Positions 4,325-29,614 of a DNA stretch of 64,000 nt are shown here, piece after piece. The stretch is from the NCBI GenBank assembly GCA_029260875.1, contig JAJDCL010000028.1, positions 1,161 to 65,160 of the forward strand, given 5' to 3'. The stretch is from Candidatus Saccharimonadota bacterium. GTDB lineage: Bacteria > Patescibacteriota > Saccharimonadia > Saccharimonadales > OFTM59. Both the position numbers and the translations under genes were made by a program. How positions within the stretch are numbered: position 1 is the first letter of the stretch; the number at the start of each line of letters is the position of its first letter. The notes below the pieces were generated by a model, which saw nothing but the letters and a program-made list of their open reading frames with translations, was not told where the DNA came from and searched no databases.

Positions 4325-5803
4325 TTAGTTGTTTGATGTAACCAAAAGCTCAGTACGTAGTAAAGTAGCGCGCCCAACAATTTGTGAGTCCGATAACGTA
4401 TAAAGCGCAGTGTAATTACTGTTGAAGTAGGGCGTAGAACTAGAGTATGCAGACGATAGTTCTTGTTTGTTGGTACCGTCAAAGTCAAAAACATTAACGT
4501 GGTTATTGCTCACAAGCGTCAGGCGGTGACCATCCATCCAAACGGCTCTTTGAGGAGTGGCTAGCTCAAGCCCTGTATTGTAGCGATAGTGGCGAGCCGT
4601 CTCGGTATCATAAACGACAAATTTGCTACCCGACTGAATCTGTACAAAGCGGGCGTTAGTAGAAAACGATGCAAACTGGGGGTCTTCAATACGCAGAAGC
4701 GCAGCCGGGATAATCTTTGCTGCTGGGTTACGTCGCAACGCAAGAACCGGGTCGCGCAATATATACATCCTTTGATCATCAGTGGCACCAGCCAAGACGT
4801 ACCAGCGACCAGAAAAACGAGCTATATCCAGTATGTAGCTAGTATCGACCGGTAGCTCCTTAACGGTATAAATTTGGTCACCTTCACGAATACGCACCGC
4901 GACGTTTCCTTCCGCCGCACCGCTACTGGCAACGTACAAGAGCACATCGTTACCGTGAGATTTGAACTGTATGACACCGTTTAGTAGTGGCACGGGGGCC
5001 TGGCCGTTTAGTTCGGCTGTCATCAGCGTTTGAGCAGAACGGTCATGCAAGTAATAACGATCAAAGCGCTTATCGCGCAAAACTACATCTGTAAACACAG
5101 TGCCACTAAAATTGCGACTCAAATTGCGACTTAATGCAGGCGCCTCGTGGTCAATCAATACAAACTCAGTGCCTGTGTCAAATGTGTGCCTGACAACGAC
5201 GTGGCGATTGTCGGTTGACCATTCAACCACATCAATGTCATGCCGATCACCATTAATACTGAATAAATCTGGTGGCAGAGCAAGGTTAATAGCAGTGGCT
5301 AGCTCTGAATTTAGGTCGACCAAATCAAAACTTATGTGAGCACCGGGCTGCCTGACAATCAACCAGCGACGATCCGGGCTCTGCGTAGAAAAAACAGGCT
5401 TTTCTGCATAAAGTTGTGTCTCGCGCGACACCAATGATTCCGGAAACAACACCGGATAAACCAGTCGCTCGATTTTACCCCCGAGTAGGTTAATGGTTTT
5501 TTCCCATGTACGGTAACCAGCGCGCCTAACACTGATATCGTACTTGCTTGACGGCATAATTAGGCGTTGGTCTGTCGCCCCTTTTAATTCACCATTCACA
5601 TAAACATCTGCTCTCTCGGGATGGGCATCCACAAAAACTAAACCGTTCTGATTAATTGCCCCTGTCTGCAGGTCAAATGTATAGCCGTAGGCTTGCAGCA
5701 CCAGAAGTAGTGACACCAAACTAATAGCAACCACCATCAGCACATAGCCCACGTACAGACGTATGCGGTGTTGTCGTTGTTTGATTGGGTCTAGGAAATC
5801 CAT
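4325..5803 (-). CDS. Membrane-anchored PEGA-domain protein
   Basis: 492 aa. An N-terminal TM helix is followed by a PEGA-like segment (ADVYVNGELKGATDQRLIMPSSKYDISVRRAGYRTWEKTINL) and a long beta-rich region. Confidence 0.6.
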   Translation of the reverse strand: MDFLDPIKQRQHRIRLYVGYVLMVVAISLVSLLLVLQAYGYTFDLQTGAINQNGLVFVDAHPERADVYVNGELKGATDQRLIMPSSKYDISVRRAGYRTWEKTINLLGGKIERLVYPVLFPESLVSRETQLYAEKPVFSTQSPDRRWLIVRQPGAHISFDLVDLNSELATAINLALPPDLFSINGDRHDIDVVEWSTDNRHVVVRHTFDTGTEFVLIDHEAPALSRNLSRNFSGTVFTDVVLRDKRFDRYYLHDRSAQTLMTAELNGQAPVPLLNGVIQFKSHGNDVLLYVASSGAAEGNVAVRIREGDQIYTVKELPVDTSYILDIARFSGRWYVLAGATDDQRMYILRDPVLALRRNPAAKIIPAALLRIEDPQFASFSTNARFVQIQSGSKFVVYDTETARHYRYNTGLELATPQRAVWMDGHRLTLVSNNHVNVFDFDGTNKQELSSAYSSSTPYFNSNYTALYTLSDSQIVGRATLLRTELLVTSNN

Positions 5804-5943
5804 ATTTTTATTTTAGTCGAACGTGACTATAGTATAAATATCAGTAGGCTCCTTTGTCAAAAGAAGCGACAGGGCTTGCAGAAGTTAACCATTTGGGTTT
5901 AAGATACAAGTTGTTTTAACCAAAACATAAGAGGGTAGAGCTA

Positions 5944-7035
5944 GTGGCTCAAAATACAATCGAAATCAATGGCAGACATTACGACGCGTTATCTGGCAAA
6001 CTACTAGATAACGGCCATCTGAAACCGACCAAAAAAAGTAGTTCAAAAACCGGTACTCAGGTAGTAGACGGGTTCATAAGACGGCCAAAACAAGCCCTGC
6101 CCAGGCAAGCGACCCCTTCACACAAAGTGCATAGCAAAGCCTCTCACTCAAAAACCCTTATGAGAACGTCTGTGAAGAAACCGGCCCAAAAAATCACGGC
6201 AATACATAATAAGAATTACTCTACCTATCATCCCAACGAAAGCAACAGCTCAAGGACAGAAAGGCCAGATCACGTTGACAGCACGCGCATAGAGCGAGCA
6301 GCAGCCATACACAGAAGCAGCTTGGTGAGTAGATTTGGCGAGATTGGTAGTCATATAACCAAACGTGTTGCCCCTATAGCTGTCAAGCCCGCCCCTGAGC
6401 ACGGCAAAACCGCACTCCATAGCGCAAGCACCCCGATAGACTTACGAGGCACTAACCCTGCTAGTGTAGTAGAGGAACCGTTGAGCCCTTTTGACATTGC
6501 CCTGCAAAAGGCTGACTCGCACAAGCTATCGCGGACCAAGAGGCAATCATTAAAACAGCGTACCGCGCGCAAGCTACGTATAAGTACCCATGCGCTGAGT
6601 CTTGCTATGGGCGTATTTCTTGCATTATTTGTTGGGGGGATTCTTGCGTACCGCAGCGTCCCTCAAATTGCACTCAAAATTGCCTCCACACGTGCAGGGG
6701 TTAGAGCTCAACTACCATCCTATCAGCCGTCCGGCTTTTCGCTCAGCGGCCCAGTCCAATATGGTGATGGCGTGGTTACTTTAAAGTATGAGTCCAATTC
6801 TGATGACCGCAATTTTAGCGTGGTTCAGAAAAAGTCCGACCTAAATAGCCAGTCACTAGCAGAAAATTTCACAACCGCTCAAAGCACATATCAAACCTTT
6901 GAAGATAAGGGTCGTACAATTTTTGTTTACGAAGGCAGCAATGCCACATGGGTGAACGGCGGTGTGTGGTACACGGTAGAAGGCGAATCAGAACTTTCTA
7001 GCGACCAGCTCCGCCGAATTGTCTCCGGCCTTTAA
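5944..7035 (+). CDS. Hypothetical single-pass membrane protein (basic, Ser/Thr-rich N-terminal half)
   Basis: 363-aa ORF with a GTG start. It has a TM helix (LSLAMGVFLALFVGGILAY) and no motif I recognise. Confidence 0.5.
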   Translation: MAQNTIEINGRHYDALSGKLLDNGHLKPTKKSSSKTGTQVVDGFIRRPKQALPRQATPSHKVHSKASHSKTLMRTSVKKPAQKITAIHNKNYSTYHPNESNSSRTERPDHVDSTRIERAAAIHRSSLVSRFGEIGSHITKRVAPIAVKPAPEHGKTALHSASTPIDLRGTNPASVVEEPLSPFDIALQKADSHKLSRTKRQSLKQRTARKLRISTHALSLAMGVFLALFVGGILAYRSVPQIALKIASTRAGVRAQLPSYQPSGFSLSGPVQYGDGVVTLKYESNSDDRNFSVVQKKSDLNSQSLAENFTTAQSTYQTFEDKGRTIFVYEGSNATWVNGGVWYTVEGESELSSDQLRRIVSGL

Positions 7036-23450: not shown

Positions 23451-24797
23451 ATGAGTAAACTTCCGATTGTGGCTATTGTGGGGCGTGCTAATGTTGGCAA
23501 ATCGTCCTTGTTCAATGCGGTTTTAGATCGGCGTGAAGCAATTGTCGCAAGAGAGCCAGGGACAACCAGAGACAGCATAACCGCAAAAGCGGGGTATGAC
23601 GGCCAACACTTCTGGCTGGTTGATACCGCGGGCTTAAAAACAGCTGAGGATGATTTTGAATTTACCATCCAAGAGCAGATTGCTCAGGCAGCAGACAGCG
23701 CCGATGTTATATGGGTCGTGATTGAAGCTGATGTGCAAATTAGCGAAGAAGATCGCCGAGTAGCAAAGCTGGCCCTAAAAAGTCGCAAACCTGTCTATTT
23801 AGTGGTTAATAAAGCCGACAAAAAACCCAAAGCGCAAATAGACGACTACAGGCGACTCGGCATAAAAGACATCTTTCTAACCAGTGCCACTCAAAACCGT
23901 GGCATAGATGAGCTGCTAGGTAATCTTGTAGAATCAATCCCCAGTGCGTGGTTAGAGGATGATGACGACCGCTTGCATGTAGCGCTGCTTGGTCGCCCAA
24001 ACGTTGGTAAATCATCGTTGTTCAATACACTCGCCAAAAAGCAGCAAGCCATAGTAGCCGACAAGGCAGGCACCACACGCGACATAAACCGAGCGATTGT
24101 GCGTTATCAGGGCAGGGAAATTGAACTGATGGACACCGCTGGGATCCGTCGTAGCGGCAAAATAGAAAAAGGCATAGAACGCTTCAGTGTCATCCGCGCC
24201 CTTAGCGCTATCGAACAGGCTGATATTTGTTTTCTTCTAATGGACGCAAACGAGCTGCACGTAGCGCTAGATCAAAAGATAGCGGGTATGGTAAAGGAGG
24301 CAGGCAAGGGCCTGGTTTTGATTGTCAGTAAATGGGACAGCCTTGATAAAGATGCTTACACGCGCGACAAACTTGCACCGGAGATTGCTTATGATTTTGA
24401 TTTTGTACCCTGGGCGCCATTGATCTTCACTAGTGCCGTAAGCGGACAAAATGTGACCAAGCTATTTGATCTAGCGCTAGACATAGACAAAAAACGGCAA
24501 ACCCGCATCAAAACAAGCGAGCTAAACCGCTGGCTCAAAGATATTACAACCGCGCATCCACCAGCAGGCCTAAAAAACCGCATGCCAAAACTAAACTACA
24601 TCTTGCAAGAAGACGATAACCCGACCAATTTCAAAGTTTACGGCGCCCACACTAAGTTTCTGCACTGGAGTTATAAACGATTTATGGATAAAGAGCTGCG
24701 GTTGAAATACGGCTTTGAGGGCACCCCCGTTCGTTTCTGGTTCTTTGAGAAACACGTAACCCACAAACACGGCAGCAAACCAATAAGCAAAGAGTAG
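23451..24797 (+). CDS. der: Ribosome-associated GTPase Der/EngA (two tandem G domains + KH-like domain)
   Basis: It has two P-loops (GRANVGKSSLFN and GRPNVGKSSLFN), DTAG motifs and NKAD/SKWD. Confidence 0.95.
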   Translation: MSKLPIVAIVGRANVGKSSLFNAVLDRREAIVAREPGTTRDSITAKAGYDGQHFWLVDTAGLKTAEDDFEFTIQEQIAQAADSADVIWVVIEADVQISEEDRRVAKLALKSRKPVYLVVNKADKKPKAQIDDYRRLGIKDIFLTSATQNRGIDELLGNLVESIPSAWLEDDDDRLHVALLGRPNVGKSSLFNTLAKKQQAIVADKAGTTRDINRAIVRYQGREIELMDTAGIRRSGKIEKGIERFSVIRALSAIEQADICFLLMDANELHVALDQKIAGMVKEAGKGLVLIVSKWDSLDKDAYTRDKLAPEIAYDFDFVPWAPLIFTSAVSGQNVTKLFDLALDIDKKRQTRIKTSELNRWLKDITTAHPPAGLKNRMPKLNYILQEDDNPTNFKVYGAHTKFLHWSYKRFMDKELRLKYGFEGTPVRFWFFEKHVTHKHGSKPISKE

Positions 24798-24883
24798 TTA
24801 GTAGGTAGTAGATAGTAGTTGGGTTAGAGTAACACCGTACTATTGCATACTTCATACTTGATACCTCATACTTCATACTCATA

Positions 24884-25516
24884 ATGGCATTTTTTCAGAA
24901 GAAACCTCAGACAAGTGATAGTGTGCCACTTTATACGCTTGGGATGAACAAGACCATCTTAATCGTAGGTCTTGGCAACCCGGGCAAAAAGTACGAACGC
25001 ACGCGGCATAACATAGGCTTTGAATGCCTAGATACCTTTGCCAAAGCACATGATTTTGATCCATGGGTAGAGAAGAAAGACTTAAAAAGTCTAATAACTT
25101 CAAAAACGCTGGGCGATGTACGGGTCATACTTTGCAAACCGACGACCTTTATGAACCTTAGCGGCGAGGCAGTGCAACGTGTCCAGAACTTTTATAAAAT
25201 TCCTGGGGATAATATTGTGGTTGTCCATGACGAACTTGACATACCGTTTGGCCAGATCCGTATGCGCACCGGTGGCAGCAGCGCTGGCCATAACGGCATA
25301 AAGTCGCTAGCTCAACACAACGGAGAACGTTTTGGGAGGATTCGTATAGGTATCGGCGCAGATACAATTATGAGCGGCTCAGCCTTCGTCCTAGCTAAAT
25401 TCAATAAAGACGAAATGGCGCATATATCCAGCATGACTCGTGAAGTAACGAGCATCTTGAACGAATATGTCTACAGCAATAAACTCATGCCCGAAACCCG
25501 CAGTTTTATTCTATAG
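24884..25516 (+). CDS. pth: Peptidyl-tRNA hydrolase
   Basis: It carries LIVGLGNPGKKYERTRHNIGF. The true start may be the internal ATG at 24944 (MNKTILIVGLGNPG). Confidence 0.9.
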   Translation: MAFFQKKPQTSDSVPLYTLGMNKTILIVGLGNPGKKYERTRHNIGFECLDTFAKAHDFDPWVEKKDLKSLITSKTLGDVRVILCKPTTFMNLSGEAVQRVQNFYKIPGDNIVVVHDELDIPFGQIRMRTGGSSAGHNGIKSLAQHNGERFGRIRIGIGADTIMSGSAFVLAKFNKDEMAHISSMTREVTSILNEYVYSNKLMPETRSFIL

Positions 25517-25538
25517 GCTCGGTTTGTGGGGTATAGTT

Positions 25539-25691
25539 TTACCTTGCGGGTTCACTGCTTCCCCTAATTGCTTCTATCTGATTTCTAGTTTTTTCAGCTT
25601 CTGCTTCAGCCTTTTGTAATCTTTCTTCTGCCGCAGCACGCATCTGTGCTGGGTAGTTAGGATCTTGAGCCCTGTTACCAAGTACGCGCAT
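25539..25691 (-). CDS. Small ORF (50 aa, Ala/Glu-rich helical) with a strong Shine-Dalgarno
   Basis: GAAGGAG lies 4 nt before the ATG. The product is MRVLGNRAQDPNYPAQMRAAAEERLQKAEAEAEKTRNQIEAIRGSSEPAR. Below the track's size cut-off. Confidence 0.35.
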   Translation of the reverse strand: MRVLGNRAQDPNYPAQMRAAAEERLQKAEAEAEKTRNQIEAIRGSSEPAR

Positions 25692-25808
25692 TACTCCTTC
25701 AGGCGCCAATACCGCAGGCTTATCGTTTTCTGCAGCTGCATATAGTAGTGTTCATTCTTCTATGAAAATTTAAAATTATATCTCAGTATATAGCATGCTT
25801 CTGTACCC

Positions 25809-26320
25809 AAAAATGAGGCCCCAGATGCTGGGGTGCTTTTAAGGATCGTGCTTGAGTGAAGTGCAAGGAAGTGGTGAGAATCGCAAGGGAGCCGTACACA
25901 AAGTACGGTGACTGCGACCCGGAACCGCTGACGCCGCAATTTACCAAGAGCAGTAGCGGTGCAGTCAGCTCTGCTGAATGGCAGGCTACTGTGGCACGGT
26001 TCTTAAAAGGCCTCCAGAGGGGGTGGGCACCGCTGGAGGCCTATTACACCCTTCAACCCACCTTGAAGTTTTCACTCCACCTGGTGATGCCTGGTCGACC
26101 CTTTAAACTGCAAATAAAACGCAGAGGTGACAGGGGTTAAAGGGGTTAGTCTGTTTTAGAGCGCATTCGGCCAATAATAAATTAAGGACCAGCGCCAAGA
26201 GATTAAGTGGAGGGTAACAACTTATTCACGGCACGCTCTAAAACAATCTAACGTTCCTTCGCAATGCGAAGTGCTAGAATGGATATAAGGTACGGTAAGT
26301 CGGTATAATTCCGCTTACGA
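25809..26320 (-). ncRNA. Candidate unknown structured ncRNA locus (one or two transcripts) in an ORF-free region
   Basis: A consensus promoter points into it at 26327-26355. It holds at least 8 hand-found helices of 6-11 bp. Minus-sense terminator-like hairpins lie at 26004-26042 and 25809-25833. No credible ORF is present. Confidence 0.35.
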
Positions 26321-26326
26321 ATTGCC

Positions 26327-26355
26327 ATTCTAGCAAATATGTTACGTTATGTCAA
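26327..26355 (-). promoter_or_regulatory. Near-consensus sigma-70 promoter on the minus strand (TTGACA-17 nt-TAGAAT, with TGc extended -10)
   Basis: Minus strand reads aagtaTTGACAtaacgtaacatatttgcTAGAATggcaat. The -35 is 26355-26350, the -10 is 26332-26327, and the spacer is exactly 17 nt. Confidence 0.55.
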
Positions 26356-26374
26356 TACTTAAATATAAATATTC

Positions 26375-27235
26375 ATGAAAGTCAAGAAGCTAGTGCTTAG
26401 TGATGGACAGTTTCCAGCCACGCTAAAGAACATACCATACCCACCAAAAGAGTTGTATGTGCTGGGCAATATTGAGGGATTGATGGAGTCACGACGGCTA
26501 GCTGTGGTTGGGAGTAGGCGCGTTTCTCCGTACGGTAGGCAGATTACGACTTGGCTAGTAGAAGAGGCTGCCAAAGCAGGTGTAGTTATTATTAGTGGCT
26601 TGGCGCTTGGAGTAGACGCGCTAGCGCATCAGGCAGCCCTGGCTGTTCACGGTCGGACCATAGCGGTATTGCCGTGCGGGCTGGATAGATTTTACCCCTC
26701 TACAAACGCAGCGCTTGCCAAGAATATTTTAGAGCAGGGAGGGGCAATTATCAGCGAATATAGCCCCGGTACCGATGCACGACGAGAGAATTTTATAGCA
26801 CGTAACCGCCTGGTGTCAGGTCTTAGCGAGGGCGTGCTTATAACTGAAGCGGCTATTAAAAGCGGGACCATCCACACAGCTGGTTTTGCGCTTGAACAGG
26901 GGAGAACCGTCATGGCAGTACCAGGCAATGTTACGAGCCAGTTGAGCGCTGGTACGAATCAACTAATAAAGACAGGTGCGCTTGTTGTAACTGAGCCAGC
27001 CGATATTTTTATGGCACTCAAGATGGATGCAAAAGAACAGAGACAACAGGCGCTAATCGGCGACACTAAGGAGGAGTTTATGATACTTAAATTGCTTGCA
27101 GCGGGCTTATCTGATGGTGGCGAACTACTGCAACGCAGCGGGCTGGACGCCACGACATTTAACCAAGCACTAACTATGTTAGAAATAGCTGGCAAAATCC
27201 GGCCCCTCGGTGCCGGACATTGGGGACTAAGCTAG
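26375..27235 (+). CDS. dprA: DNA-processing protein DprA/Smf
   Basis: 286 aa with VVGSRRVSPYGRQ...ISGLALGVDALAHQAAL and a C-terminal winged-helix-like tail. Confidence 0.9.
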   Translation: MKVKKLVLSDGQFPATLKNIPYPPKELYVLGNIEGLMESRRLAVVGSRRVSPYGRQITTWLVEEAAKAGVVIISGLALGVDALAHQAALAVHGRTIAVLPCGLDRFYPSTNAALAKNILEQGGAIISEYSPGTDARRENFIARNRLVSGLSEGVLITEAAIKSGTIHTAGFALEQGRTVMAVPGNVTSQLSAGTNQLIKTGALVVTEPADIFMALKMDAKEQRQQALIGDTKEEFMILKLLAAGLSDGGELLQRSGLDATTFNQALTMLEIAGKIRPLGAGHWGLS

Positions 27236-27322
27236 TTACAGTAACTAATGTCATTTGCATTTTACAGGCAACACAAGTACTGTTACTTGCTGATACATAT
27301 TTAATAGGTACACTTATAAAGC

Positions 27323-29614
27323 ATGAGCAAAAACCTCGTTATCGTGGAAAGCCCAGCAAAGGGCAAGACCATTGAAAAATACTTAGGCAAAGACTACACC
27401 GTTAAAAGTAGTTTTGGCCATATCAGAGACTTGCCTAAAAAAGGTCTAAATATAGACATTGAAAACGGTTTTGAGCCCAATTATGAGGTCCCGTCAGATA
27501 AGTCCAAGACCATCAGCGAACTAAGAAAAGCCGCCAAAAGCGCCGACACTGTTTGGCTAGCAAGCGATGAAGACCGCGAAGGCGAAGCAATTGCCTGGCA
27601 CTTGTGCCAAGCACTTAAACTAGACGAGAAAAAAGCCAAGCGCATTGTGTTTCATGAAATCACAAAACAAGCCATTGAACACGCCGTCGCCAACCCACGT
27701 ACCGTCAACATGGCGCTAGTAAACGCCCAGCAAGCGCGTCGCATACTAGACCGTCTGGTGGGATATGAGCTATCGCCGGTGCTCTGGAAAAAGGTCAGGC
27801 CCGGCTTAAGTGCTGGCCGAGTACAATCCGTGGCTGTCCGGCTGACAGTTGAGAGAGAAAGGGAGGTCAAAGCCTTTGCCCCCCAGTTGGTCTTTAAAGT
27901 TACGGCTACATTTTTGGCCGACTCAAGTGAATTACCGGCAGAATTAACTACCCGATTTACTGAGGAAGAATCTGCAAAAGACTTTCTTAAGGCATGCCAA
28001 CTTGCAACATTTAGCGTTAAGAGTATTGAGAAAAAACCCGGCACTCGCAGTCCGGGAGCCCCTTTTACGACTTCGTCCTTGCAGCAGGAAGCCGCCCGTA
28101 AACTAGGCTACAGCGTTAAGCAGACCATGACGCTGGCCCAGCGCTTATATGAAAGCGGCCACATCACATATATGCGGACCGACAGTACCACGCTTTCTGG
28201 GTTTGCAATTAAGGCAGCCGAGGAATTTATCAAAAAACAGTATGGTGATAAATACCATCAGGTTCGTCAATATAAGACAAAAAACCAAAGCGCACAAGAA
28301 GCTCATGAGGCTATTAGGCCAACTAGCTTCGCTAAATTGTCAGCGGGGAATGATGCCCAACAGGAAAAACTGTATCAGCTAATATGGCGCAGGACCCTGG
28401 CAAGCCAAATGGCCCCGGCCACAGTAGACAAGACAGAAATTATTATATCTCCGAGTAACCGCAGCGAGACATTTGTGGCAAAGGGAGAGGTCCTAAAGTT
28501 TGATGGGTTTTTCAAAGTTTATGGTGGCACTAAAGATGACGTTATATTGCCCAACATAAAACACGGTCAAGAAATTGCTTTAGGTGAAATGATAGCCACG
28601 CAGACCTTCAGCAAGCCACCAGCACGCTATTCGGAGGCGAGTCTGGTTCGCAAACTTGAAGAGCTGGGGATAGGACGACCAAGCACATACGCGCCGACTA
28701 TTTCTACCATCCAGGCACGGGGCTATGTCGAGAAGCTGGATCTTGAGGGCACCGAGAGGAGTATTAAAAGCCTAAAGCTTAAAACAGGCAAGATTACTGA
28801 GCTACTAGCAACAGAGGTTACTGGTGCTGACCGTGGCAAACTTGTACCGACCGCGCTGGCTGAAGTTACTACTGACTTTCTTGTAAGGCATTTTTCCTCA
28901 ATTGTAGATTATAACTTTACTGCACATGTAGAAGAAGATTTTGACCATATAGCCGAAGGCAAGCAAGAGTGGCAAAAAATGATAAAAGCATTTTACCAAG
29001 ATTTTAAGCCACTTATTCAGCAATCAGAGAGTGTTACCAGGGAAGAGACCAGTCAATCACGGGAGCTAGGCCTGGACCCAAAAACGAGCAAGCTCATTGT
29101 AGTTCGCTTTGGTCGCTACGGACCTATGCTACAGCGAGGAGTGACTGAGTCAGAAGAAAAGCCGGATTTTGCCCCTCTGCCAACCGGCGTAGATATGAAC
29201 GATGTCACATTGGAACAAGCTTTAGAAATGTTTAAGCTCCCGCGAATAGTGGGGAAGACCGATGACGGTGAGGAGATTAAGGCAAACATAGGTCGCTTCG
29301 GGCCATATATTCAAATCGGCAAGCTCTATGTATCTATTAAGCCACACGACCCGATGAAAATTACCGAAGACGAGGCACGAGAATTTTATGCAAAAAAACT
29401 ACAACAAGAAGCAGAGAAGAACATCAGCGAATTTCCCTCTGGCATTAAGGTATTAAACGGCCCGTACGGCCCTTATGTAACTGATGGCAAGAAAAACGCC
29501 CGCATAGCGAAATCGGTTGACCCAAAAAGCTTGACCGAAGAACAAGCCAAGGAAATGCTTGAAAAAGCACCTGACAAGCCTCGTCGTTTCAAAAAGCGCA
29601 AACACAAGAAATAA
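27323..29614 (+). CDS. topA: DNA topoisomerase I
   Basis: 763 aa. The TOPRIM N-terminus is LVIVESPAKGKTIEKYLG...ASDEDREGEAI. The active-site region is ITYMRTDS. The C-terminal tail is basic. Confidence 0.95.
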   Translation: MSKNLVIVESPAKGKTIEKYLGKDYTVKSSFGHIRDLPKKGLNIDIENGFEPNYEVPSDKSKTISELRKAAKSADTVWLASDEDREGEAIAWHLCQALKLDEKKAKRIVFHEITKQAIEHAVANPRTVNMALVNAQQARRILDRLVGYELSPVLWKKVRPGLSAGRVQSVAVRLTVEREREVKAFAPQLVFKVTATFLADSSELPAELTTRFTEEESAKDFLKACQLATFSVKSIEKKPGTRSPGAPFTTSSLQQEAARKLGYSVKQTMTLAQRLYESGHITYMRTDSTTLSGFAIKAAEEFIKKQYGDKYHQVRQYKTKNQSAQEAHEAIRPTSFAKLSAGNDAQQEKLYQLIWRRTLASQMAPATVDKTEIIISPSNRSETFVAKGEVLKFDGFFKVYGGTKDDVILPNIKHGQEIALGEMIATQTFSKPPARYSEASLVRKLEELGIGRPSTYAPTISTIQARGYVEKLDLEGTERSIKSLKLKTGKITELLATEVTGADRGKLVPTALAEVTTDFLVRHFSSIVDYNFTAHVEEDFDHIAEGKQEWQKMIKAFYQDFKPLIQQSESVTREETSQSRELGLDPKTSKLIVVRFGRYGPMLQRGVTESEEKPDFAPLPTGVDMNDVTLEQALEMFKLPRIVGKTDDGEEIKANIGRFGPYIQIGKLYVSIKPHDPMKITEDEAREFYAKKLQQEAEKNISEFPSGIKVLNGPYGPYVTDGKKNARIAKSVDPKSLTEEQAKEMLEKAPDKPRRFKKRKHKK

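Follow-up and report, generated by a model that had tools for sequence, protein, structure and literature searches.

What does the long gap between pth and dprA encode in the genome of a Candidatus Saccharimonadota bacterium? We analyzed a window of 64,000 nucleotides (nt) from this genome (GenBank assembly GCA_029260875.1, contig JAJDCL010000028.1, positions 1,161 to 65,160 of the forward strand), the plus strand of which carries der (23451-24797), pth (24884-25516), dprA (26375-27235) and topA (27323-29614) in this order. The pth-dprA gap measures 858 nt and contains a region, 25809-26355, that an earlier note on the sequence had described as helix-dense, free of open reading frames (ORFs) and headed by a near-consensus minus-strand promoter. 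We are highly confident that the gap holds a genuine, conserved gene for a structured noncoding RNA (ncRNA) of a new family on the minus strand (26322 to 26004, ~320 nt), convergent with pth and divergent from dprA. To the full statement, in which this RNA acts in trans as a folded particle, we lean only slightly. Saccharibacteria (TM7, within the Candidate Phyla Radiation, CPR) are tiny epibiotic bacteria. The DprA protein of the window is at most 66% identical to that of any species representative, and its close relatives all come from Saccharibacteria/Saccharimonadales metagenome-assembled genomes.

We searched 80 dprA loci of species-representative genomes with the stretch 25700-26375, using nhmmer and blastn. 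The matches covered only ~26000-26371 of the window and occurred in 17 of the 19 Saccharibacteria loci. No match to the RNA was found in the loci of other phyla among these 80, and 30 non-Saccharibacteria dprA loci gave no match to the RNA covariance models described below; as found so far, the family appears to be restricted to Saccharibacteria. Eighteen reference-genome (GTDB) relatives, chosen by DprA similarity only, were aligned with MAFFT (set A1). In this alignment the -35 and -10 boxes and several blocks of 10-20 nt are invariant, while the DprA proteins are only 44-66% identical. A scan of metagenome contigs for the exact pattern GGTGGGTTGAAGGG-N12-42-GTGCCCACCCCC (26 specified bases, far fewer than one chance match expected) returned at least 120 contigs. 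Reference and metagenome sequences together yielded at least 138 loci with the 3' motif, 108 of them full length with a promoter and 98 of them non-redundant; counts out of 98 (or 97 or 95) refer to this non-redundant full-length set.

The closest relative that we fetched (L201, GCA_029260855.1; Pth 81% identical) shows where the conserved unit ends. Its homology to the window begins at the -35 box and breaks off directly after the U-run that follows the 26008-26042 hairpin. Over the RNA the two genomes are 92% identical in nucleotide sequence, compared with 74-83% for der, pth, dprA and topA; among the differences in the RNA is an indel of 12 nt within a variable hairpin. Of the single 0.55-kb region proposed earlier, 26004-26355 is conserved and the remainder, 25809-26003, is missing in L201. 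The ~315-nt transcript that the earlier note had suggested fits the conserved unit 26322-26004. Its ~510-nt read-through form would include another 190 nt that L201 does not have, and thus cannot be a trait of the family; a single ~510-nt unit that includes 25809-26003 was rejected since L201 does without this stretch, which also holds a dispersed repeat. The helices at 25819-25833, 25892-25907 and 25951-25991 exist in the sequence but lie inside an insertion that L201 lacks.

The minus-strand promoter TTGACA-17-TGcTAGAAT (26355-26327) proved to be the best promoter-like site in 24500-27500, with 11 of 12 matches plus the TG of an extended -10, and it is conserved in relatives. Its -35 box reads TTGACA in 85/98 homologues and TTGACT in 12/98, in a set whose extraction pattern required TTGAC at -35 and did not require the TG. 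The spacer is 17 nt long in 86/98, a TG stands 1 nt upstream of the -10 box in 95/98, and a conserved nGCAA follows directly after the -10. We infer that the RNA starts at the A residues 4-5 nt past the -10 box, inside nGCAA, and ends at the U-run, which is UUUU in the window and 3-8 nt long in relatives. From -10 box to terminator the full-length homologues measure 300-593 nt, and the total RNA length varies between genomes from ~210 to 570 nt owing to variable hairpins. The conserved promoter and the terminal hairpin with its U-run point to an independent sigma-70-type ncRNA gene with an intrinsic terminator, and the extended -10 promoter suggests that the RNA would be transcribed constitutively and abundantly.

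The homologues share one fold, on which RNAalifold, mutual information (corrected by average product, APC) and explicit pair counts agree. It consists of a 5' hairpin (P1), two adjacent long-range helices, P3 (which encloses P4) and P6 (which encloses a variable domain), and a terminal hairpin, P7 (Table 1). Covariation supports P1, P3, P4, P6 and P7, and the top mutual-information pairs are pairs of P7, P1, P3 and P4. In set A1, 94.5% of cells are paired, compared with 33-57% when the partners are slid along the alignment; double changes occur at 24 of its 50 pairs, and 0/500 shuffles did as well. The 97-sequence alignment, which unlike A1 was fitted to the covariance model, has 91.4% of cells paired in the 5' domain and double changes at 21 of 24 pairs, again with 0/500 shuffles as good. 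Compensatory changes exceed both the shuffled and the shifted controls, which marks the element as a structured RNA. It is almost inconceivable to us that the conservation reflects a small protein, or DNA such as a promoter or protein-binding region that is conserved without any RNA function. Mechanical ORFs do exist, for example one of 94 amino acids at 25856-26140 (+), but this one spans the non-conserved insertion, no ORF is conserved, the variable segments differ in length without 3-nt periodicity, and five helices carry compensatory double changes and G-U wobble. The pth-dprA gap as a whole is not free of ORFs, since a small one preceded by a Shine-Dalgarno sequence lies at 25691-25539 (-), between pth and the region of the earlier note.

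Table 1 Features of the ncRNA gene and of the adjoining insertion, in window positions.
Feature	Position	Strand	Basis or remark
-35 box TTGACA	26350..26355	-	invariant in 18/18 reference-genome relatives
Extended -10 TGcTAGAAT, 17-nt spacer	26327..26335	-	promoter scan, homologue counts
Conserved ncRNA, ~319 nt	26004..26322	-	nhmmer, alignment conservation limits, covariance models, minimum free energy (MFE)
P1, 5' hairpin (GUAAGCGG...CCG-A-CUUAC)	26295..26318	-	hairpin formation in homologues
Single-stranded junction, consensus GYACCUUAUACCCCC (CGUACCUUAUAUCC in the window)	26281..26294	-	column conservation, 98 homologues
UUCUAGC and variable hairpin	26253..26279	-	length differs among homologues
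P3 5' strand: GUUAG (P3a), AUU, GUUUUAGAGCG (P3b)	26234..26252	-	pairs with 26145-26163
P4 hairpin UAAGU/ACUUA inside P3, 11-nt loop UGUUACCCUCC (26209-26219)	26204..26224	-	conservation, stem covariation
P5, variable hairpin inside P3	26164..26199	-	length and sequence differ among homologues
P3 3' strand: CGCUCUAAAAC, AGA, CUAAC	26145..26163	-	pairs with 26234-26252
P6 5' strand CCCUUUAAC	26136..26144	-	pairs with GUUGAAGGG, 26057-26049
Variable domain enclosed by P6	26063..26135	-	73-163 nt in relatives, at least two architectures
GGUGGG-UUGAAGGG: putative pseudoknot 5' strand (26062-26057) and P6 3' strand (26057-26049)	26049..26062	-	invariance
Junction J6/7, UGUAAU	26043..26048	-	column conservation 84-94/98
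P7, terminator hairpin (stems 26042-26033 / 26017-26008, then UUUU 26007-26004)	26004..26042	-	covariation
Dispersed structured repeat copy, ~120 nt, outside the RNA family	25850..25974	-	absent in L201; nhmmer profile copies
Terminator-like hairpin CCCCAG-CAU-CUGGGG (25833-25819), then CCUCAUUUUU, end of insertion	25809..25833	-	promoter/terminator scan; not conserved
50-codon ORF (MRVLGNRAQDPNYPAQMRAAAEERLQKAEAEAEKTRNQIEAIRGSSEPAR), preceded by AAGGAG (good Shine-Dalgarno)	25539..25691	-	in insertion absent from L201

Several lines of evidence bear on the strand. The folding energy of 26000-26322 (-) beats chance (MFE z = -5.9). A 521-nt stretch folds better than its shuffles on both strands (z = -5.7 and -5.8), and this excess does not identify the strand because it is expected for any set of inverted repeats. 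G-U pairs in the RNA sense are more informative: a U-G pair stands in the middle of P6 in 97/98 homologues, and 26-28 G-U pairs were counted in P3a across the homologues. Read on the plus strand, such pairs would turn into A-C mismatches, so the RNA strand is minus. In addition, we built covariance models of the 5' domain (R1) and the 3' domain (R2), which match the window at 26145-26326 (-) with 123 bits and at 26001-26152 (-) with 110 bits. With R1, 97/97 sources reach 48-144 bits on the RNA strand, compared with no more than 37 bits on the antisense strand. Promoter, terminator, G-U pairs and covariance-model scores together indicate that the strand is minus. The convergent plus-strand RNA that the earlier note had entertained is contradicted by the G-U pairs and by these antisense scores, and on the same evidence we rejected a plus-strand RNA or dprA leader.

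We next describe the fold from 5' to 3'. P1 forms a hairpin of at least 6 bp in 95/95 homologues (median 9 bp) with 34 different 5'-strand hexamers, and the junction after it (26281-26294) had no pairing partner among the homologue columns. A helix P2, UCUAAC with GUUAGA, is possible in most homologues (87-94 of 98 cells paired), its 5' strand being missing in L006 and L007. P2 and P3a are mutually exclusive: GUUAGA has two possible partners, UCUAAC upstream and CUAAC downstream (26273-26279 / 26248-26252 / 26145-26149, -; columns 52-57, 73-78 and 168-172 of the 98-sequence alignment). Both partners of GUUAG are conserved and both track its rare changes, and the alternative could represent a folding intermediate or a conformational switch. 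P3 spans ~19 bp, with 98-99% of cells paired in 97 homologues and 14 of 16 pairs changing on both sides; in L012 its P3b part is wholly swapped (GCGUGCAACG/CGUUGCAUGC). Inside P3, the 11-nt loop of P4 is invariant and the P4 sequence UACCCUCCAC is found in 98/98 homologues, with an AU pair of the stem changed to CG in 6, and the loop motif ACCCUCC is retained even in the distant relative L013.

In the 3' domain, P6 is present in 98/98 homologues, 100% paired and nearly invariant, and its rare variants are compensatory (CUCUUCAAC/GUUGAAGAG in L019, CCCUUCAAU/AUUGAAGGG in L013). The domain that it encloses has covarying helices of its own (mutual-information pairs 234-291, 260-284 and 262-281 in alignment columns). 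The 10-bp stem of P7 shows covariation at 9/10 pairs, with 99.4% paired cells, and supplies some of the top mutual-information pairs. The 15-nt loop of P7, CGGUGCCCACCCCCU, is invariant and includes CCCACC (26027-26022), the 3' strand of the possible pseudoknot with GGUGGG. Such pairing is sterically plausible and would tie the P7 loop to P6, linking the 3' hairpin to the rest of the fold. The earlier note had proposed this pseudoknot. Both segments are present and invariant; in the reference set chosen by DprA, GGUGGG-UUGAAGGG is constant save for a 1-nt shift in L018. Other invariant loop and junction sequences include UUACCCUCCAC, GGUGGGUUGAAGGGUGUAAU and GGUGCCCACCCCC. The ~200-nt insertion between the P3 3' strand and P6 in L001 (RNA of 513 nt) and the ~45 nt found there in L010 indicate that the P3 and P6 domains tolerate separation.

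Among the helices listed earlier by eye, the 26008-26042 hairpin corresponds to P7, the 11-bp GTTTTAGAGCG/CGCTCTAAAAC to P3b and GTAAG(T)CGG/CCGCTTAC to P1, all of which covary in relatives. Two others compete with P6 as local alternatives: CCCTTTAA/TTAAAGGG (26099-26106 with 26137-26144) is confined to the window and L201, and CTTCAA/TTGAAG (26051-26068) could form at least 6 bp in only 23/98 homologues.

The gene nearly always occupies one locus, in which der and pth are followed by the convergent RNA gene and then by divergent dprA, or by topA where dprA is missing. The RNA terminator often lies 0-20 nt from the pth stop codon, and a typical distance between the -35 box and the start codon of dprA is ~20 nt. 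In loci without dprA the RNA remains a neighbor of topA, and its convergence with pth leaves no gene downstream on the RNA strand, so that it is neither an element specific to dprA nor the leader of another gene. We consider it very unlikely that the element works in cis, either through interference or an antisense 5' end at the divergent dprA/topA promoter or as a leader that controls read-through downstream. The ~20 nt between -35 box and dprA start codon in most loci, the small ORF that read-through in the window would reach, and the alternative pairings could all be accommodated by such a role. However, the terminator abuts convergent pth (~0-20 nt) in most genomes, with nothing to read into, and both the small ORF and the tail are missing in L201. 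A covarying structure of 300 nt is more than interference requires, loci that lack dprA still retain the RNA, and dprA looks leaderless, with its own -10 and no overlap with the RNA. A riboswitch or other cis leader was rejected on similar grounds, as the next gene is convergent pth and the downstream small ORF of the window is absent from relatives.

A shorter version of the RNA (~210 nt) was found in L013, a distant member of Saccharimonadales (Der 43% identical), in the same place and orientation (5745-5990, -). Its promoter reads TTGACA-17-TAATAT, the loop of its P4-like hairpin is UGCACCCUCC, its P6 covaries, and its terminator hairpin displays ACCACC; P1 is missing and the P3a strands are swapped (ACUAA/UUAGU). 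The R2 score of this version is 36 bits (E = 1e-5 in 545 kb). The short form helps to delimit a minimal core made up of P6, the junction and two loops, that of P4 (ACCCUCC) and that of P7.

To place the RNA among known families, we compared it with the 4227 covariance models of Rfam 15. At gathering score, the whole window gave two tRNAs elsewhere and nothing at the RNA locus. With permissive filters and E <= 10, the stretch 25600-26500 gave two chance matches to long noncoding RNAs only, and at E <= 5 the 18 homologous loci gave three unrelated chance matches, none of which recurred. All complete E. coli genomes, with their rRNA, were searched by blastn in distant mode and gave no match, and a literature search on ncRNAs of Saccharibacteria, TM7 or Patescibacteria found no RNA of this kind. 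Words resembling a T-box, a Cas9 tracrRNA, 5S rRNA or the 23S L1 stalk were noticed by eye and discarded, since their order and context did not fit and Rfam was silent. The family thus appears to be new, outside Rfam 15 and every family described in the literature searched.

It seems extremely improbable that the RNA is a highly divergent form of a universal RNA, that is, RNase P RNA, transfer-messenger RNA (tmRNA), signal recognition particle (SRP) RNA or 6S RNA, that Rfam models missed. CPR RNase P RNAs can be divergent and fall below Rfam thresholds (PMC8172020), which would allow for such a case. However, an RF00010-type RNase P RNA was reported in all 35 circular CPR genomes studied, two Saccharimonadia among them (PMC8172020), no Rfam match was obtained here at E <= 10, the RNA ends in separate hairpins, and the defining motifs are absent. 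For RNase P, the CR-I motif GGAAAGUCC was exact in 0/98 homologues. The P4 helix (CR-I AGGAAAGUCC with CR-V ACAGAAnnCGGCUUA) could not be assembled either, as GGAAAGTCC was exact in 0/98 and found with at most one mismatch in 2/98, and ACAGAA occurred in 0/98; neither RF00010 nor RF00011 matched the window locus or the 18 homologues. RNase P RNA of type A (RF00010) resembles the Saccharibacteria RNA in size class and in combining an invariant core with variable peripheral helices. Some short G- or C-rich words are also presumably reminiscent of its S-domain (for example GGGUUGAAGGGUG compared with GGGUGAAAGGGUG), but their order is reversed in the Saccharibacteria RNA, and P4, CR-I and CR-V are lacking.

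The remaining universal RNAs fared no better. ARAGORN predicted no tmRNA in the window, the T-arm word GGTTCGA was exact in 0/98 homologues, and the RNA ends in a terminator hairpin, unlike tmRNA with its tRNA-like acceptor and T-arm, CCA and tag reading frame. The short words CCACCA and GGCTTA were each exact in 4/98 homologues. The motifs of SRP domain IV, a hairpin with a GGAA tetraloop and AGCA/GGAAG loops, were sought as GGAAGCAG and AGGAAGCA, which were exact in 0-1/98, and neither RF00169 nor RF01854 matched. 6S RNA is likewise stand-alone, has a strong sigma-70 promoter and is often missed by Rfam covariance models. It is, however, a ~180-nt rod with little sequence conservation, closed by pairing of its 5' and 3' ends around a central bubble, whereas the Saccharibacteria RNA has long invariant stretches, separate P1 and P7 hairpins and two internal multi-branch domains; we rejected 6S RNA for this reason. 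The earlier view of a structured RNA of unknown class, distinct from tmRNA, RNase P, SRP and 6S RNA, has held up: the Rfam search and the examination of relatives that had been suggested returned no match at E <= 10 and an element conserved and covarying at more than 130 loci.

The closest parallels are large orphan RNAs such as OLE, the raiA motif RNA, ROOL and GOLLD. These too are stand-alone, lineage-restricted and several hundred nt long, with many covarying helices, likely pseudoknots, invariant loops and junctions, and a conserved core with variable peripheral hairpins, and their function cannot be read from sequence. They differ in that all are in Rfam and none matched the Saccharibacteria RNA at E <= 10, with no similarity in sequence or structure, and the latter has a CPR host and a fixed context between pth and dprA/topA. 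OLE RNA has Oap partner proteins; no comparable partner is known for the Saccharibacteria RNA. An invariant core with variable peripheral hairpins is the pattern of RNase P RNA, tmRNA and OLE RNA. We propose that the RNA would act in trans as a folded particle, most likely as the RNA core of a ribonucleoprotein, with the invariant C-rich loops (ACCCCC, ACCCUCC and CCCACCCCCUC) serving as recognition surfaces. We find a trans-acting particle of this kind more probable than regulation in cis or simple antisense action.

The main rival is a trans-acting regulator that works by base pairing, in which the same C-rich loops seed on G-rich, GGAGG-like sites in mRNAs and the fold merely presents the seeds. 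RoxS/RsaE and RNAIII in Firmicutes work by such seed pairing from C-rich loops. The Saccharibacteria RNA resembles them in its exposed C-rich motifs able to pair with G-rich ribosome-binding sites and in being a stand-alone gene with its own promoter and terminator; three C-rich segments are invariant and exposed, and CCUCC is the core anti-Shine-Dalgarno sequence. We nevertheless rate this possibility as rather unlikely. The RNA is 3-5 times larger than RoxS/RsaE, and its size, covarying multi-domain fold with long-range helices and invariant junctions exceed what seed presentation needs. The host also appears to use few Shine-Dalgarno sites (GGAGG at 5 of the 60 ORFs of the window), many genes look leaderless, and no target was identified. 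A ribozyme, with a pseudoknotted core and invariant junction nucleotides as an active site for RNA processing or other chemistry, is in our opinion doubtful to a greater degree. Ribozymes share the signature of invariant junction and loop nucleotides in a helical scaffold, and the invariant nucleotides here do cluster in junctions and loops of a covarying scaffold with a likely pseudoknot. This signature fits protein-binding RNAs equally, however, and we saw no similarity to Rfam ribozyme families and no cleavage site, substrate or processing context.

A number of points weigh against a trans-acting particle. The expression, ends and abundance of the RNA are all deduced from sequence. Because the residues concerned are constant, covariation can probe neither the pseudoknot pairing nor the functions of the loops. 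Among the metagenome copies, the P6 3' strand, the pseudoknot and the P7 loop are invariant partly by construction, as the search pattern required these sequences; the same invariance is seen in the independent reference-genome set. No partner protein is indicated, as der, pth, dprA and topA simply reflect conserved gene order. C-rich loops are typical seeds of base-pairing small RNAs, and the exclusive pairings (P2 or P3a, and in a subfamily a local hairpin or P6) would also suit a switching regulator.

We tentatively raise the possibility, with odds that we place below even, of a lineage-specific housekeeping RNA, conserved like RNase P RNA or tmRNA, that would form the core of an unseen ribonucleoprotein or ribozyme and be essential to epibiont biology. 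If true, a housekeeping RNA would have been kept in genomes of ~1 Mb whose biology includes widespread leaderless translation and a reduced apparatus for ribosomes and RNA processing. To our knowledge, very few ncRNAs beyond the universal ones are known in CPR bacteria, whose genomes are tiny. The nucleotide conservation of the RNA above that of adjacent essential genes, its length of 300-570 nt, its fixed chromosomal position, its consensus promoter and its loops, which stay invariant between lineages with only 45-65% protein identity, suggest an important, probably abundant and previously undescribed cellular component. With boundaries, a structure model and covariance models now defined, it is a well-supported addition to the few large orphan RNAs known in bacteria, a class that has yielded ribozymes, guide RNAs and unusual RNA-protein particles.

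We also made observations on the neighboring genes. A -10-like TATAAA box lies 6 nt before the ATG of dprA, which apparently has its own promoter (26341-26369, +). The -35 region of dprA overlaps that of the RNA gene on the opposite strand, and these tightly packed divergent promoters could compete for RNA polymerase. Many genes of the window have a -10-like TAnnnT box that ends 5-8 nt before the ATG, without a Shine-Dalgarno sequence, for example upstream of 11724, 7893, 23451 (der), 24884 (pth), 26375 (dprA) and 27323 (topA). This pattern suggests that leaderless mRNAs are common in this Saccharibacterium.

Three sets of contigs deserve separate mention. The locus L017 (4300-5110), labelled Chloroflexi, turns high-GC just upstream of a truncated Saccharibacteria-like dprA; the contig is probably a chimera. 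In L137 the RNA is present twice, in inverted orientation and along with duplicated fragments of pth and dprA, which is probably an assembly artefact. Five IMG/VR contigs matched a looser 20-base pattern, for which ~5 matches are expected by chance; they had no R1 or R2 match and no synteny, and a viral origin was rejected.

Finally, we examined the sequence downstream of the RNA. In L201 only ~20 nt separate the RNA end from the pth stop codon, which identifies window positions 25517-26003 (~480 nt) as an insertion in this genome. The insertion holds the small ORF and the lower third (25809-26003) of the region described in the earlier note, a stretch that folds weakly better than chance (z = -2.35). 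The 50-codon ORF had no Pfam match and no homologue in 201 related loci. The insertion also contains a copy of a ~120-nt dispersed repeat, which had no Rfam match; its hallmark is a conserved hairpin, CCGUAUU..AUACGG, followed by CUC and GCCUUGY. With an nhmmer profile we located further copies: five other loci have the repeat directly behind the RNA terminator, three have it at unrelated positions, and L139 has it within the RNA gene itself (L112 479-601; L159 158-285 and 344-429, two tandem copies; L138 205-320; L085 611-702; L154 1918-2006; L002 1708-1828; L004 3389-3511; L188 6630-6752; L139 3852-3968). The L139 homologue reaches 593 nt because its copy lies inside the RNA gene, on the opposite strand. 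RNAalifold on seven copies of the repeat predicted 20 pairs, 15 of them with compensatory changes; the repeat may represent either a family of small RNAs or a miniature mobile element.

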